Shown here piece by piece: positions 53,785-60,934 of a stretch of DNA of 64,000 nucleotides. Both the position numbers and the translations under genes were made by a program. Origin of the DNA: an uncultured Chloroflexia bacterium (GTDB taxonomy: Bacteria > Chloroflexota > Anaerolineae > JAAYZQ01); contig CAVOXA010000015.1 in NCBI GenBank assembly GCA_963700285.1, positions 64,001 through 128,000 of the forward strand, written 5' to 3'. The first letter of the stretch is position 1; each line of letters starts with the position of its first letter. Below the pieces are notes generated by a model. The model made no database searches, had not been told where the DNA came from, and saw only the letters and a list, made by a program, of their open reading frames with translations.

Positions 53785-54987
53785 TCAGGGCAACTGCAGT
53801 ACTTCCTCCAGTTGCTCCAGTGCCCAGTCGATCTCCTCCTTGGTAATGACCAGCGGAGGAGCCAAGCGGATTACGTTCCAGTGGGTCTCTTTGCACAGCA
53901 GGCCCCGCTCCATCAGGGCAATGCAGAAGCGCCGCGCCCCGCCAGCCTCTGGATTGAGCACAATGCCGACCCACAGCCCTTTGCCCCGGATCTGCTTGAT
54001 GTGCGGACTCTCGATCTCGCACAGCCTGCCCAACATGTACGATCCCAGTTCGGCCGAGCGCCCGATGAGGTCTTCCTCCACCAGAACCTTGAGCGCCTCT
54101 CGGGCCACGGCGCAGGCCAGAGGATTACCGCCATAGGTTGAACCGTGGTCGCCCGGTTGGAAGACGCACATTACTTCTCTGCTGGCCAGTACAGCCGAAA
54201 CGGGGTACATGCCCCCCGACAGCGCCTTGCCAATGGTGACCATGTCGGCGCGAACGCCTTCGTGATCGGCAGCGAACAGCTTGCCGGTACGGCCCAAACC
54301 GCTCTGGATTTCGTCGGTGACAAGCAGGACCTCGTGCCGGTCGCAGATCTCCCGAACTTGCCGAAGATAGCCCTCCGGCGGAACGACGACACCACCCTCG
54401 CCCTGGATCGGCTCTACCAAGAAAGCCGCGGTGTTGGGGGTGATCGCGGCCTCCAGTGCAGCCGCGTCACCAAAGGGGATCAGTTCAAAGCCCGGGGTGA
54501 AGGGCCCAAAGCCGTCGCGGTACTGTTCTTCCGGCGAAAAGCTGATGATCGTGATGGTCCGCCCGTGAAAGTTGCCGTGACAGGTGAGGATGTGCGCTCG
54601 ATCGTCCTTGACACCCTTGACCTCGTAGCCCCACTTGCGGGCCGCCTTGATGGCCGTCTCGACCGCCTCCGCTCCCGAGTTCATGGGCAGCATCATCTCG
54701 TAGCCGGTCAGCTCGCAGAGTTCCCTGGCCAGGAGCGGCAACTGGTCGTTGCGAAAGGCACGGCTGGTGAGCGTCAGGCGAGCGGCTTGCTCCACCATCG
54801 CCTTGACCAGGCGCGGGTGGCAGTGGCCCTGATTTACAGCCGAGTAGGCGGCCAAGAAATCCAGGTAGCGCTTGCCTTCGACATCTTCGACCCACACCCC
54901 GCTGCCACGGGTCAGCACCACATCCAGGGGCTGGTAGTTTTGCGCGTTGTACTGTTCCTCGATGGCGATGTACTCTCGTGTATCCAT
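53785..54987 (-). CDS. rocD: Ornithine--oxo-acid aminotransferase
   Basis: [54 protein letters not shown]. Confidence 0.92.
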
Positions 54988-55092
54988 GGCCCGCCCCAAA
55001 CAGCGTTGCGTGAAAGGCAATGCGTGAGGGCAAATTCCACACCTCACGCATTGCCCTCCACATTCAGGATTCGTATCTCAACCGTTGCCGCT

Positions 55093-56425
55093 CTACGACT
55101 CGATGACCTCTACCTTCTCGGTCAGGCCGATGCCCAGCCTGGCCAGTTCAGCCAGCACCGGTTCATAGATCTCGGGGATCACGGGTACGTGTACACCGGT
55201 CAAGTCCCGGGAACTCGCCGTGCAGGATCATTCGGACGGCGATGGCCGCCGGCAGGCCCACGGTGCGCGCCATCGAAGTGTCGCCGTTGGGGATGCCATA
55301 GTCGATCATGGTGGCCGTGATGGCCTCTTTGCGATCCGGATACTCGGCCACGAACTCGTGCTGCATGACGATCAGTCACGCTCGCCCGGCTTGTAGGCCA
55401 GTCTTGGCCTCCATCCGCGCCGCCAGGACGTCGAGACGGGTATTCTTGCCCTCCGGCAGCGGCTCATCGGAGAAGAGGCCCAGCCAGTCCAGGTCGGTGA
55501 TCGGTTTGGAATCGTCGCACATGCCCCACTGCTCGGCCAGGTACTGGGGGAAATCGGTGTCAGGGCTGACATCCAGCAGGCGGGCCGTGAGTTCGCGGAA
55601 GGTCGCCGGTGGCTCAGCAAAAGGGCTATCGTCCAGGAAACCCATCTCGGCAATCTTTTTCAGTGTGGCGCACCAGCCCACGTTGCGCAGCGTGCCCCGG
55701 AACATCCAGTCGGTGGGCTGGATGCCGTAGATCTCCGGCATAGGGCATGCTGTCGCGGTTGGGATAACCCTCAAACTCGCCCAGGCCTTCAATGTACACT
55801 GGCCAGTAGTGGTCGAACAGTTCCTCGCCGGGTATCTCGACGACTTGGCCATTCCTTTGGAAGCGGGCCGGATTCTTGCCCGCCAGCAGCACACCCTCGC
55901 GGGCTCCAGGAGAACTTGTAGCCAAAGGGATTGTCGCTGGCTTCTGGGGCCGGGCAGACCTCCAGTCCAGGACACAAAGCTGACGATCTTGCCGCCCTTG
56001 CCCTCCACTTCGTGGATGACCTTCATGGCCGACATGTGGTCGATGCCGGGATCCACGCCGATCTCGTTCAGCAGGATGACGCCCGCCTCCTTGGCCGGGC
56101 CATCCAGGGCAAGCATCTCATCCTTGACGTAGGAGGTGGTCACCATGTGTTTCCCGTGCTTCACACACAGGGCGGCGACCTTGGGATGGTAGACGTAGGG
56201 CAGCATGCTGACCGCCAGGTCGCTTTGGCGGATCAGGTCTTCCATCGCTGCCTCGTCTGTCACGTCGAGGGCAATGGCCCTACCCCGGGGATGGCCATCG
56301 ATCAGCGCTTCCGCCTTGCTCACCGTGCGGCTGGCCACGGTCACTTCAAAGTCCGGCACGTCCAACAGGTAGCGGACGTGTGGCCTGGTCACCAGGCCGG
56401 CTCCGAGTACGAGAACTTTTTTCAT
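55093..56425 (-). CDS. Saccharopine dehydrogenase (Lys9/SDH type); frameshifted
   Basis: VLGAGLV, EIGVDPGIDHM, PEASDNPFGYKFSWSPRG, YPNRDS, RGTLR, MARTVGLP. Confidence 0.85.
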
Positions 56426-56518
56426 TGGTCTAGTCCCTCCACAGTCTCAGATCTGCTCTTTGTCCATTGGCAACACGCAACATGAATCACAAGTACGCAG
56501 TCACTATTGCGCTGTCAG

Positions 56519-57835
56519 CTAGTCCAGAAACTCCTGGATGTACTGGTAGTCCGGCGTCAATTGGCCTCGGTAGGCAATGACCGCCCGCTTGATCTCCGGC
56601 GGCAGGTCGCAGTCCTCAAAGGATGCAGAAAAGTCACATCTGGGCCATGGCCGGGATAAAGGGCGCAAGAACGTGGCTAAAGTCGGCGGATGCTTCGCGG
56701 GGCAGTTCGCTGGGCAGGATCTCCACGGCCATGATGACGACGCCCGGTCCCTCGTGACCGTCAGTCACCGCGCCGGTCAGCGGGTTCGTAGACGTAGATC
56801 GGGTCGCCCGGCTCGGTCGCTTTGACCGTACATTCGATGGCCCCCTCCACGTCACAACTGATGTCGCCGATGACGCGCAGACCGGGGCTTGGCCTCGGCC
56901 GCCAAACAGCGTCTTGAGATAGGCTTTGGTCACCAGGCGCGGATAGGCATCGGTCCAAAAGATGGCGTTGACCAGCACGGTCAGGTGTGGCACGTACTGC
57001 TCAAAGACTCCTCTGTACTTCTCCGGGTGATCATAGTAGTCCTGCAGCTCAAAGACGCCATCCGGCGACGCTGGCTCTACCATGTGCCATTCTTTGAACA
57101 CCGCCTTGTAGAGGTGATGCCGGGAATAGTCGGTACTCGCTGCGACGGTGGCCACTTCCTCTGGCTCGATCTCGATGACGGGCAGCAGATCGAGCATTTC
57201 TTGGGCGCCTCGCGAGACGTTGCCATAGCCAGCCACGCCGACGATGAGTGGCGTGACCTGTTCGGGCAGGCCCTCGGTCTCGATCCTGGCTCGCACCTGC
57301 GCCAGGGCCTGCTTTGGCCTCGGCCAGGTCGTGGTAGGTGTGGGTCTGGCGCAGTTCGACGAAGGGGTTGGCGATGCCTTCCCAGGCCAGTCGCTGGCCC
57401 AATGCCCACAGGGTGTCGATCATGCCCGCCACGCCGGCGTGCCAGCCAAAGAAGATGAGCCGGCGGTTCTTCTCGTCAACCACCCGCTCATAGTCGATCA
57501 ACGTACAGCCCAGGTCGAGCATCCGCCGCAGCATGGGCATGTTGTAGGGCTGTCCCTTGATGACGTGGGCGAAAAAGACATAGGTCTTGTCTGGCTCAAA
57601 GGACCCCTTCGGGATCTCTTTGATGCCAAGGATGATGGGGCAGGAGACAGATCCTCTTGGACGGGGATGCCCGCTTCGGCGAACTCGGCTCGGTAAAGGC
57701 CCGCATGGGTGACGTCTGGGCTATCACCTGAATGCCGTGCTCCCGTTGAAGCTTGACGGCATCCTGGGGGGTAATGGGCACCCGCCGCTCCCATTCACTC
57801 TTGTCTTCGCGACGAAGTCCGATCATTGCGGTCAT
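56519..57835 (-). CDS. Lysine-ketoglutarate reductase (LKR; AlaDh/PNT fold); frameshifted
   Basis: GLRREDKSEWERRVP, HVIKGQPYNMPML, LIDYE, GYGNVSRGAQE, IGDISCD, ILPSELPREAS. Confidence 0.85.
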
Positions 57836-57915
57836 GGTGCTACCCTCCTATACGCGTGTTCATGCTAGTACCGAAGGTCAGGGCAGGGGCTTTGGTGAAC
57901 TCTGGTAGAGACCAG

Positions 57916-57940
57916 AAAAGCCGGTGCCTCAGGCACCGGC
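57916..57940 (-). terminator. Terminator-like hairpin inside the LKR operon leader
   Basis: GCCGGTGCC-TGA-GGCACCGGC-TTTT on the minus strand. Confidence 0.6.
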
Positions 57941-58001
57941 CAAAGTCAGCCGCTCGGGGTTTGCGCCCAGAGTTGCACCCGGCCACCTTGCCGATGCCCC
58001 C

Positions 58002-58030
58002 AGTATACGCACAAGGCGATGCTTTGTCAA
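58002..58030 (-). promoter_or_regulatory. Sigma70 promoter of the LKR-SDH-rocD operon
   Basis: TTGACA-17-TATACT. Confidence 0.7.
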
Positions 58031-58117: not shown

Positions 58118-58172
58118 TTGACAGGGTTGAGCCGTAGTGCTATAATCGCTCTCGATGTACCCCTGGGGGGTA
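58118..58172 (+). promoter_or_regulatory. Consensus sigma70 promoter followed by a CsoR/RcnR-type operator
   Basis: TTGACA-17-TATAAT with extended TG; TACCCCTGGGGGGTA at 58158-58172. Confidence 0.75.
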
Positions 58173-58201: not shown

Positions 58202-58609
58202 GTGGATAGAAGTGAACAGGAAAGGCTCATTTCCGATTTCGTCGACCGCCGTGTGTGGGCCATAGTGGGCGCCAGCCAAGACCAGCGCAAGTATGGAAAC
58301 CGTGTCTATCGCTCGATGCGCGATGCAGGGTACACGGTCTATCCGGTGAATCCCAGGGGCGGCGAACTGGAAGGAGCCAGAGTCTATCCTTCTCTGGCCG
58401 ACTTGCCCCAAGCGCCGGAAGTAATCGATCTGGTCGTACCCCCATCCGTCACCGAAAAGGTGGTCAAGGAAGCGCACGAACTGGGGCTCACCCGCATTTG
58501 GATGCAGCCAGGCGCCGAATCGGAGACGGCTATAGCGTATTGCCGGGAACATGCAATGGAAGTGATCTATGACGCCTGCGCCATGGTTCACAAACGACAG
58601 TGGAACTAG
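58202..58609 (+). CDS. CoA-binding protein (YccU-like)
   Basis: AIVGAS, YPVNP, YPSLADLP, IWMQPG, DAC. Confidence 0.9.
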   Translation: MDRSEQERLISDFVDRRVWAIVGASQDQRKYGNRVYRSMRDAGYTVYPVNPRGGELEGARVYPSLADLPQAPEVIDLVVPPSVTEKVVKEAHELGLTRIWMQPGAESETAIAYCREHAMEVIYDACAMVHKRQWN

Positions 58610-58632
58610 ACACTCGGTACGAGGAGAATACC

Positions 58633-58965
58633 ATGGAAGAAAAGACGGTGGCACAAGTCCAGGTAACAGTATTTGGCAACCGGCTCCTGGAGAGCTGCGC
58701 GCCAGGTGGTTGAGGGCCGATCAGGTCTTCGGCGGAGACCACGTACATCACTGAGTACTATTTGCAGATGCGGCATGGACAGGCCGTTCAGGTGGAATAT
58801 GTGGACCTGGCGGATCCAGAAAGCCAGGCAGAATACTCTGATCTGCTTGACCTGGTCAAGGATCAAAGCCTGCCCTATCCCCTGGTTGCCATCAATGGGG
58901 AGCTAAGGCTGGCTGGATCGGCTCACTATTTTCGGGTGCTACCGCTCGTGGAAGAAGCTCCTTGA
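58633..58965 (+). CDS. Putative selenoprotein with thioredoxin-like (YuzD/DUF1462-like) fold; Sec codon at 58711; true end may be 58993
   Basis: RBS GAGGAG + ATG; MEEKTVAQVQVTVFGNRLLESCAPGG-TGA-GPIRSS continues in frame into VEYVDL...PYPLVAING; SECIS-like hairpin follows. Confidence 0.75.
58724..58740 (+). promoter_or_regulatory. Candidate bacterial SECIS element
   Basis: GGTCTTC-GGC-GGAGACC stem-loop starting 10 nt after the UGA; loop begins with G. Confidence 0.7.
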
Positions 58966-59074
58966 GGTACAGGCCGAGGGGGCCGTGGGGTGATCCCTGG
59001 ATTCCGTGCTTGTCGTTCGCACTGATATGCCGACACTCCTGAGCGACCGTTGTCGCCAAACAGTAGTCTCACTG

Positions 59075-59113
59075 AAGGGGGAGATTGACAAGTCTCCCCC
59101 TTTTTGTTACACT
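59075..59113 (+). terminator. Terminator hairpin overlapping a sigma70 promoter
   Basis: AAGGGGGAGA-TTGACAAG-TCTCCCCCTTTTT; TTGACA(59085)-17-TACACT. Confidence 0.6.
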
Positions 59114-59142
59114 CCTACCGTGCCGGGTGCCTGCGACCTGAC

Positions 59143-59170
59143 GAAACCTTTTGACCTACACCGCATCTAA
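59143..59170 (+). promoter_or_regulatory. Putative ECF-sigma promoter (autoregulatory)
   Basis: GAAAC-16-CATCTAA, matching the site at 60187. Confidence 0.6.
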
Positions 59171-59183
59171 AGGAGAAAGCACC

Positions 59184-59802
59184 GTGTTGGGTGTCGCATT
59201 TGCTAGCGAGGCCGAACTGCTGGAGGGCCTGCGGGCCGGTGAGCCCGCAGCCTACCGGCAGTTGGTGGAATCCAACTCAGCCAACGTCTACAACGTGGCC
59301 CTCAAGCTCCTGGGCGACGAGCAGGAAGCTGAGGATGTGCTGCAAGAGACCTTTTTGAACGCCTTTCGAGGCCATCGACCGTTTTGAGGGCCGGTCTCAG
59401 CTCTCCACCTGGCTGTATCGAATTGCCTACAACGCCAGTCTGATGCGCCTGCGAAAACGGGAGGGAATGACGGCCTTTTCCCTGGACGAGCCTCTGGGGG
59501 ATACTGGCGAGGAGCGAGTCTCGCGCCCTCTGGTAGACTGGTCCACGATGCCGGACGACCAACTGCTATCCACCGAAGCCCGCCAGATGATGGATCAGGC
59601 CATTGCTGAACTGCCGGAGACGCTGCGCTCTACCTTTGTCCTGCGTGACATCCAGGGCCTGTCGGGCGCAGAGACCGCCGAGGTTTTGGGTATCAGCGTC
59701 CAGGCGGTCAAGAACCGGCTGCATCGGGCGCGACTGCGACTTCGCGAGAGGTTGTCAGACTATTTTGCCGAGCGCGTCAAGGGTCTGCGGGCCACAACGT
59801 AG
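59184..59802 (+). CDS. ECF RNA polymerase sigma factor; frameshift near 59370
   Basis: AEDVLQETFL, STWLYRIAYN, FVLRDIQGLS, VKNRLHRAR. Confidence 0.9.
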
Positions 59803-59815
59803 GGAGGAGACATCT

Positions 59816-60061
59816 GTGCCAATTGAACATGACCACACCAGCTGTCGTGAGTTGTTGGGCCAGTTCTCCGACTATATCGACGGCGATCTGGAAGTTGCGC
59901 TGTGCGCCGAGATAGAGGCCCATCTAACCGGATGTCCCGACTGCCAGGTGATGATAGACACCATGCGCAAAACCATTACGTTGTACCATAGCCAAGCCGA
60001 AGCCGAACTGCCGTCCGACGTAGAAGAACGCCTATACAAGGTCCTCAACCTCGAGAAATAG
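59816..60061 (+). CDS. Soluble zinc anti-sigma factor (zf-HC2)
   Basis: SCRE..SDYIDG, HLTGCPDC; RBS GGAGGAG. Confidence 0.88.
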   Translation: MPIEHDHTSCRELLGQFSDYIDGDLEVALCAEIEAHLTGCPDCQVMIDTMRKTITLYHSQAEAELPSDVEERLYKVLNLEK

Positions 60062-60271: not shown

Positions 60272-60934
60272 ATGGCATTGATTTCCCCGCAGGATGCTGA
60301 GCACTTGCGAAACGAGTTTGAGGCTCAATTGGTTAACCCGGTAAAGCTGGTCATGTTTACCCAGACCATCGAATGCCAGTTCTGCGCCGAGACGCGCCAG
60401 ATTGCCGAAGAGATTGCCGACTTGTCCGACAATATTACGCTCGAGGTCTACAATTTCGTCACGGACAAGGCCACGGCCGATCTGTACGAGATAGACAAGA
60501 TCCCGGCCATTGCCATTCTCCGTTCAGAGGATGGACAGGACAGAGACTATGGGGTCCGGTTCTATGGCATCCCCTCAGGTTACGAGTTCACTAGCATCAT
60601 TGAGGGTATTGTTGACGTCTCCAAGGGCGAGTCGGGTCTCCAGCCCAGGACCAAAGAGGTTTTGGCCGCGCTGACCCAGCCCGTGCATTTTCAGGTTTTC
60701 ATCACGCCTACCTGCCCCTACTGCACCCAGGCAGTCCGGCTGGCGCACAAGTTTGCCATCGAGAGCGACCTGATCCGGGGGGACATGGTCGAAGCCATCG
60801 AGTTCCCACACCTATCCAACAAGTACGGCGTCTATGGCGTACCACGCACGGTGATCAACGAGACGATCCACCAGGAGGGGGCAGTACCTGAACCGATGAT
60901 CTTGGCCAAGATGCTGGAGGCGGTTCAGAATTAG
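60272..60934 (+). CDS. Protein-disulfide oxidoreductase (PDO / AhpF N-terminal-like, two thioredoxin units)
   Basis: CQFC and CPYC; GIPSGYEF; GVP. Confidence 0.9.
   Translation: MALISPQDAEHLRNEFEAQLVNPVKLVMFTQTIECQFCAETRQIAEEIADLSDNITLEVYNFVTDKATADLYEIDKIPAIAILRSEDGQDRDYGVRFYGIPSGYEFTSIIEGIVDVSKGESGLQPRTKEVLAALTQPVHFQVFITPTCPYCTQAVRLAHKFAIESDLIRGDMVEAIEFPHLSNKYGVYGVPRTVINETIHQEGAVPEPMILAKMLEAVQN

Follow-up and report, generated by a model that had tools for sequence, protein, structure and literature searches.

The window (the whole 64,000-nt stretch of DNA that was analyzed) contains on its forward strand a predicted operon headed by a sigma70-type consensus promoter with an extended TG (TTGACA-17-TATAAT, 58118..58146; 12/12 match). 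Directly behind it is a palindrome, TACCC-N5-GGGTA (58158..58172, either strand), which is the predicted operator of a CsoR-family (CstR-like) repressor, as judged from its occurrence upstream of related genes and of CsoR-family genes. The first gene of the predicted operon (58202..58609) encodes a stand-alone CoA-binding-domain protein (CoA_binding_2; Pfam PF13380, E 7e-38), and directly downstream, at 58633..58993, lies the gene of main concern here, which encodes a predicted selenoprotein with a thioredoxin fold of the DUF1462/YuzD type. Further along the same strand there are two conserved neighbors, an ECF sigma factor and a zf-HC2 anti-sigma factor with a weak RsrA-like match, which have a promoter of their own (59085..60061 in all), and then a protein disulfide oxidoreductase (PDO; 60272..60934; TIGR02187, 280.9 bits, above the cut-off), which is a candidate reductant. 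In the assembly the ECF sigma gene is split near 59364-59369, where contigs of runs X2 and X6 are one base short. On the opposite strand, an operon at 53785-58030 has a divergent promoter (58030-58002; 11/12) and contains AlaDh/PNT-like pieces, a saccharopine dehydrogenase and a class III aminotransferase, with several frameshifts; it probably serves lysine or ornithine catabolism.

The selenoprotein gene has a ribosome-binding site (GAGGAG, 58621..58626) ahead of an ATG at 58633. From there 26 codons, ending in ESCAPGG, lead to an in-frame TGA (58711..58713), the predicted codon of Sec27, and the codon of Cys22, its predicted partner, is at 58696..58698. Past the TGA the same frame stays open for 83 codons, which cover VEYVDL and YPLVAING, before it ends at another TGA (58963-58965). 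This agrees with the initial annotation, which had described the ribosome-binding site, the start, the 26 codons, the TGA and about 83 further codons, and had placed the end of the gene at 58993. That end is the stop of a shifted frame, whereas the in-frame end as assembled is 58965 (110 aa), but it is likely the true one. A single surplus assembly base within 58950..58956 would clip the C-terminus: short-read contigs of two runs (X2 and X16) are each one base short at 58952/58955, among the differences listed, and in a same-genus relative (G001) the gene continues ELLEVQAEGAQG, reaching 119 aa. Because of these contigs and this read-on, the true product is likely of 119 aa, with its stop at TGA 58991-58993. 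Shared words among the sequencing runs amount to at most 0.24. The TGA at 58963 was considered as a second Sec codon and rejected, since no significant hairpin goes with it (z -0.28), it is unconserved, and the surplus base explains it. The table-11 ORF list has a 67-aa downstream piece as its sole entry for the selenoprotein gene. RNA-library contigs span 58497-58647 and 58809-59031, a coverage that does not amount to evidence of transcription; read support at the level of single bases is incomplete for the TGA at 58711.

The TGA at 58711 is conserved among relatives. Within the order, 19 of 23 genomes have a match, and all 19 best matches carry one TGA at this column. In the class sample 46 of 301 genomes match, with the TGA inside the match in 35 and just upstream of it in 2, and the remaining matches are seven Cys codons (two C-x4-C, five CxxC), one broken copy and one distant single-Cys protein. 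Searched with the profile, the phylum sample has matches in 24 of 301 genomes and adds 20 TGA-bearing genes, several of them from other classes. All of these counts come from kin genomes, which are not independent samples. When the single protein was used in a pattern scan of species genomes, only 2 loci came up. Homologues with a Cys codon at the TGA column (L070, L072, L074, L076-L078 and L081), together with the TGA kept in 19/19 matches of the order, bear out the proposed Sec position. In an unfinished quick tree (113 rows by 118 columns, nine near-duplicate or broken loci omitted) the Cys and Sec forms are interleaved, and no direction of change is inferred from it. One family copy (L073, in G054) has its frame broken just before the Sec motif.

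Database records give a different picture of the gene. All 78 close database proteins, from a search limited to 60-193 aa, are pieces of 60-91 aa that lack the motif, and many of them bear the name 'disulfide oxidoreductase YuzD'. Trp stands at the TGA column in six full-length representatives (P0083, P0084, P0090, P0092, P0114 and P0134); the five that were looked up come from contigs of 546-1046 nt, and the Trp forms likely stem from a code guessed by gene callers on short contigs.

The genome (7.05 Mb, 89% complete) encodes the Sec machinery on which the Sec reading depends, namely selA (579 bits), selB, selD and one tRNA-Sec, with selB and selD matched in pieces in this indel-prone assembly, and with selD carrying an in-frame TGA of its own. 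The only tRNA with a UCA anticodon is the tRNA-Sec. Long ORFs end in TGA more often than in any other stop (765/1651), which argues against a code in which TGA is Trp. The gene selA is present in 57 of 60 chosen genomes versus 263 of 301 class genomes, and with a class base rate of 87% this co-occurrence has little discriminating power. No selA match turned up in G167, a distant genome (90% complete) that carries the TGA.

Behind the TGA there is a hairpin of the bacterial SECIS type (58724..58740), with a 7-bp stem and a 3-nt loop that begins with G (GGUCUUC-GGC-GGAGACC). It starts 10 nt past the UGA, so that the loop is 17 nt past it. The initial annotation had judged this geometry to fit bacterial SECIS elements, and the hairpin agrees with all clauses of the bSECIS model in the Figure 2 legend of PMC13188914 (loop of 3-9 nt, here 3 nt; stem of 4-16 bp, here 7 bp; G in loop position 1 or 2, here first; spacing of 16-37 nt, here 17 nt; MFE <= -7.5, here -8.9 kcal/mol); to this is added covariation across relatives. 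Folded alone, the 26-nt hairpin has a z of -2.27, with 6 of 200 shuffles equally good, and in windows of 50-80 nt the MFE structure is a rival pairing (z -0.7 to -0.9, not significant). Single-sequence folding is therefore weak evidence, and conservation is the strong evidence.

This conservation is seen at several levels. A complete stem (7/7) with the loop G in this register stands behind 58 of the 196,017 TGA triplets of the genome, versus 45 of the 46 main-clade relatives, window included, where the main clade is the 49 TGA loci minus 3 from a distant branch. The codons that make up the hairpin are essentially frozen: Ser+5 is TCT in 46/46 main-clade genes (TCT is 9.3% of the genome's Ser codons), Ser+6 is TCG in 43/43, Glu+8 is GAG in 46/46 and Thr+9 is ACC in 44/45, with variable codons on either side. 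In an ungapped alignment of 60 Chloroflexota genes, from which five genes whose hairpin is displaced by 2 nt and four whose hairpin is longer are excluded, 97.6% of stem cells are paired and five of the seven pairs show two-sided change; 0 of 500 shuffles match this pairing, and slid partners pair in 42-57%. RNAalifold recovers the identical stem unaided. The Cys-coded homologues retain 0-3 of the 7 pairs (7/7 tested). The stem is kept even where the encoded peptide varies (RSSxET, SQxEIT, PSLKV), so it is likely the RNA that dictates the apparent RSSxET motif. By these alignments the hairpin is under selection. A search behind other TGAs of the genome for the same SECIS type found the selenoprotein gene alone. 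Given the conserved TGA, the covarying hairpin and the Sec machinery of the genome, we regard it as nearly certain that the TGA at 58711 encodes Sec and that the gene is a selenoprotein gene, as initially proposed.

With Sec scored as Cys, the protein matches Pfam DUF1462 (PF07315) at 28.4 bits (gathering cut-off 25), and 83 of the 96 aligned members match this model at E <= 0.1. The best match of the family profile is S. aureus SA0798 (1xg8; E 1.6e-10), which places Sec27 on the second Cys of the CxxC motif, as does an hhalign alignment with a CxxC homologue. A PDB sequence search with the single protein gave nothing useful, and profiles were required. The AlphaFold2 model (Sec as Cys; pLDDT 88.8) is a compact thioredoxin fold in which residues 21-30 form a low-confidence loop (pLDDT ~59). 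Cys22 and Sec27 are predicted to lie in this flexible loop, which links strand 1 to helix 1, and at that pLDDT any contact between them is hypothetical. In a VIA structure search 1xg8 is again best (Z 9.2, rmsd 3.1, 100 aligned), although the next row (Z 8.5) ties with it within 1. The YuzD-like fold of the initial annotation is thus upheld, with DUF1462 over the cut-off and 1xg8 nearest. Shared with DUF1462/YuzD are the profile and structure matches, the position of Sec at the second CxxC Cys and an invariant proline, Pro83, within the PLV strand. The protein differs in having Sec for Cys, a longer and variable loop (CU to C-x5-U), a structural identity of 14% and a Chloroflexota host. The CxxC of SA0798 is absent from the window's protein, which has C-x4-U, and is confined to a Cys-coded side branch.

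A Cys occurs no more than six residues before the TGA in all 69 TGA-bearing genes, with the spacings C-x4-U (29 genes), C-x3-U (26), CxU alone (5), CU (4), C-x5-U (3) and CxxU (2). The C-x4-U motif emphasized in the initial annotation is present in the window and is the commonest of these, but it does not define the family, since it accounts for 29/69 in a range from CU to C-x5-U. A partner Cys that is always near yet at a free distance fits a flexible loop. Two branches outside the main clade were noted. In the distant members L101-L105, from near-complete genomes of 1.7-1.8 Mb, the motif is CU or C-x3-U and the SECIS is displaced by 2 nt; their genes sit between those for SBF/ACR3-type and ArsP permeases, and they are the best candidates for a selenium-based ArsD-like chaperone. 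In the second branch (L043, L044, L079, L080 and L107) further cysteines come after a CGU or CAU motif, and the hairpin is longer; this branch is co-resident with a main-clade gene in two genomes, and some of its members adjoin SBF or ArsP genes.

The gene order around the selenoprotein is largely kept within the same family: a CoA-binding protein, the selenoprotein, often the ECF sigma factor and zf-HC2 anti-sigma factor, and then PDO. The CoA-binding gene immediately precedes the selenoprotein gene in 17 of the 19 loci of the family, and also occurs in loci of other families (L075, L087, L089); the PDO gene is in the fetched flank of 15/19. In another family, CxxC-type homologues likewise have an ECF sigma/anti-sigma pair behind them. 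Neighbors in other families include TrxB, TrxA, a UxxC thioredoxin-like selenoprotein, DUF302 and a zinc-ribbon protein, and several loci have unrelated neighbors; the 33 loci gave 107 candidate ORFs, of which 88 were scanned.

The upstream promoter matches at least 10 of 12 consensus positions in 19/19 same-family loci, and all 12 in 8 of them. The palindromic operator stands upstream of 38 of the 46 main-clade genes (~0.2 expected), always with a spacer of 5 nt, and in several families directly before the selenoprotein gene; it is missing from the fetched flank in the other 8. No operator was found in the downstream flanks of 79 loci or at the loci scored non-TGA (0/10).

The genome contains three CsoR-family genes (G000:C10:762008, C10:234783 and C1:1101654). 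One has C-H-C and lies ahead of copZ and copA with a different palindrome, which resembles the T. thermophilus CsoR site quoted in PMC10318464. Another (C10:762008) has C-F-C, the window's palindrome just upstream and trxA as the next gene, and the remaining one lacks the second Cys and is inside an operator-led trxA operon. Across 33 CsoR-family loci the operator is upstream in 18, all of them C-(F/Y/Q)-C without the Cu-ligand His and 17 of them beside trxA, and it accompanies 0/7 of the C-H-C genes. In the scheme of 10.1101/2021.07.25.453692, x-C-H-C proteins are copper sensors and x-C-x-C proteins are persulfide sensors, and the S. mitis cst operator given there has the same arms and 5-nt spacer as the window's site. 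Two-Cys repressors without the Cu-ligand His are common to this system, the CstR regulons of S. aureus, E. faecalis and S. mitis, and T. thermophilus TTHA1953. Judging from these patterns, the operator is very probably bound by a CsoR-family repressor, and the His-less paralogue (C-F-C) is a good candidate for that repressor. A site before a copZ-like HMA gene with the same promoter and palindrome (L147, in G169, where another site precedes trxB), and a His at the Y position in the repressor orthologue of G008, are compatible with a role for copper.

Four of eight strict N5 sites in the genome are beside a promoter of at least 10/12, versus 37 of 20,000 random positions, and these four precede trxA, the repressor-trxA pair, a ferredoxin and the selenoprotein operon. 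The selenoprotein gene is therefore likely, by its shared promoter and operator, a member of a thioredoxin stress regulon. Rhodanese, TauE and CoA-persulfide reductase are typical of classical cst operons. The genes predicted to be regulated here are not those for rhodanese/CoA-persulfide reductase or sox but trxA, the genes for a ferredoxin and a UxxC thioredoxin-like selenoprotein, the selenoprotein gene at 58633 and, in some genomes, trxB. No rhodanese, TauE, SQR or CoA-persulfide reductase was seen behind the strict sites of this genome, where one metallo-beta-lactamase-like gene is unclassified, and no site was found upstream of its trxB. In a literature search on CsoR-thioredoxin and on Anaerolineae, no title or opening of an abstract pointed to this family.

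Other sites and genes were noted in passing. Strong promoters also accompany the palindromes at G000:C3:58122 and C10:1632499, which precede a metallo-beta-lactamase-like gene and a gene for a small 4Fe-4S ferredoxin. A palindrome at C5:106496 was discounted as an operator, as it is inside a peroxiredoxin coding region; at G000:C5:106300-107066 a peroxiredoxin-like gene has an in-frame TGA in TxxU and is shortened by standard ORF calling. In an operator-led operon, L112 (G000:C1:1100340-1102754), trxA is joined by a thioredoxin-like gene whose UxxC motif includes an in-frame TGA, and by genes of the CsoR family and of MerR-like type; a small protein and a methyltransferase are encoded divergently. 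Upstream at L046, an operator-led operon has a UxxC thioredoxin-like gene and a zinc-ribbon gene that ends at a TGA; this TGA may also encode Sec, so that up to three selenoproteins may occur in a row.

Taken together, we put at roughly 60% the probability that the gene encodes a Sec-containing thioredoxin-fold redox protein behind the operator of a CstR-like repressor of a thioredoxin stress regulon, and a thiol-redox function is, by itself, the probable one. This role had been suggested in the initial annotation, and we infer it here with the added support of the thioredoxin-type regulon. In the proposed mechanism, persulfides or disulfide stress would oxidize the two cysteines of the repressor, releasing the operator and derepressing the operon. 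SelB with Sec-tRNA would bind the hairpin and insert Sec27, as in known Sec decoding. The Sec27 selenolate would then attack an S-S or S-S-H substrate, Cys22 would resolve the product as a selenenyl-sulfide, and co-regulated or neighboring thioredoxins, PDO and TrxB would recycle the selenoprotein.

An alternative, which we consider unlikely, is that the selenoprotein is a metal or metalloid carrier, either ArsD-like or a copper chaperone, in which Cys22 and Sec27 bind and pass on As(III), Sb(III) or Cu(I). ArsD (PF06953, NF033727; PDB 3kgk, 3mwh, 3ktb) has a similar fold with its reactive residues in the loop after strand 1; 3kgk is in the top row of a Foldseek search (E 3.7e-4), tied with 1xg8, and ArsD appears in the VIA search (Z 7.4, rmsd 3.6, 86 aligned) among many thioredoxins. 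What is shared is the common thioredoxin arrangement and hence weakly specific. ArsD binds As(III) through Cys12, Cys13 and Cys18 (PMC12415280), of which Cys13-x4-Cys18 has the same spacing as C-x4-U here, but the window's protein offers two chalcogen ligands, one Cys and Sec, in place of three. Pfam ArsD is matched weakly by 11 of the 96 members, whereas the NCBIfam ArsD score is far below the cut-off (19.6 vs 90 bits for L087); the window's protein has no match to ArsD models, and the best family E is 4.9e-5. Distant CU/CGU members (L101, L103, L104, L043, L079) do occur in operons with SBF/ACR3-type and ArsP permeases, but those ars-operon members are without the operator, and no ars genes are found beside any same-family locus or the sampled main-clade loci. 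In this genome (89% complete) the ArsD family has no match, and the sole clear ArsA-like gene is on another contig. CsoR-family operators often signal copper, and one site lies before copZ in G169, but the csoR-copZ-copA locus of the window's genome uses a different palindrome. Likely membership in a thioredoxin stress regulon favors the redox role over arsenic chaperoning.

Rather less probable again is a sulfur carrier that is not a reductase, in which the selenol/thiol would hold a persulfide (or aid Fe-S repair) and exchange it with CoA on the upstream CoA-binding protein. The pairing with that protein in 17/19 family loci and in other families, and the CstR-type operator, are consistent with such a carrier, as are a rhodanese that adjoins the Cys homologue L072, an OsmC near L075 and the 4Fe-4S ferredoxin under the same operator in this genome. 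Firmicutes yuzD may be linked to nfu genes, which would also count in its favor. Nevertheless, the CoA-binding gene is absent beside most main-clade genes outside the family, a resolving Cys is there in every case, as would suit redox cycling, and no cysteine desulfurase or Fe-S assembly gene is among the scanned neighbors. It is very improbable that the TGA is not Sec at all but a true stop between a leader peptide and a downstream protein of 65-76 aa, an error of sequencing, or a Trp codon in an alternative code: the short database pieces, the six Trp representatives and the many indels of the assembly would allow it, but the TGA is conserved across families and classes, one domain's conserved residues flank it on both sides with Cys at its column in homologues, TGA is the commonest stop, the sole UCA-anticodon tRNA is tRNA-Sec, and the Trp forms looked up are on very short contigs.

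The DUF1462-type selenoprotein family is apparently uncatalogued, in line with the suggestion in the initial annotation that it was unlisted. Table 1 of PMC13188914 (2026, 119 families) has no DUF1462, YuzD or ArsD entry. In NCBIfam of June 2026 the window's protein has no model match at E <= 1, and the 96 + 14 members have weak matches only. The examined text of BSepDB (PMC13326102), its family table lying outside the comparison, has no term of the DUF1462/YuzD/ArsD type, and a term search of the deep-Sep text and supplement (PMC12013277) does not return the family. Our literature search found no report of DUF1462 or ArsD as a selenoprotein, and none on YuzD function. The catalogued thioredoxin-fold selenoproteins, SelW-like CxxU (PF10262), HUIPC (NF047660), SaoT (NF040730) and Sec.1 (PF13192), have the fold and a single Sec in common with the present family. 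Of these, HUIPC has a UxxC motif, and its model is weakly matched by 13 of the 96 members (best E 4e-4); Rdx (PF10262) and SaoT do not appear among the matches listed for the 96. Sec.1 has the local G-U-G-P motif in common with the window's protein, but judged by eye from the deep-Sep supplement its architecture differs, in that the Sec belongs to an N-terminal CxU tail and the Thioredoxin_3 domain behind it has a separate CxxC; Thioredoxin_3 is matched by 6 of the 96 members.

Thioredoxin-fold selenoproteins are the commonest kind, so the finding extends a known theme and opens no new one. It adds to the bacterial selenoproteome a widespread family that gene callers have cut short in all the close database records examined. 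New here, from sequence comparison, is also the conserved promoter and TACCC-N5-GGGTA operator, which the family appears to have in common with a His-less CsoR-family repressor paired with trxA, and an operator with a named candidate repressor makes the regulation directly testable in vitro. More tentatively, the Chloroflexota thioredoxin system might be under a copper-blind CstR-like sensor whose regulon includes an undescribed selenoprotein family; its Cys-Sec loop would have drifted, from CU to C-x5-U, beside an unchanging SECIS, with one branch serving reactive-sulfur redox defense and the ars-operon branch being a selenium-armed metalloid chaperone of the ArsD type, the first of its kind. 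Because the Cys-Sec spacing is free on a single scaffold, the family constitutes a natural series on the geometry needs of a selenenyl-sulfide center. For the uncharacterized DUF1462/YuzD proteins, the Sec at the position of the second Cys, together with the predicted inducer, is a first functional clue.
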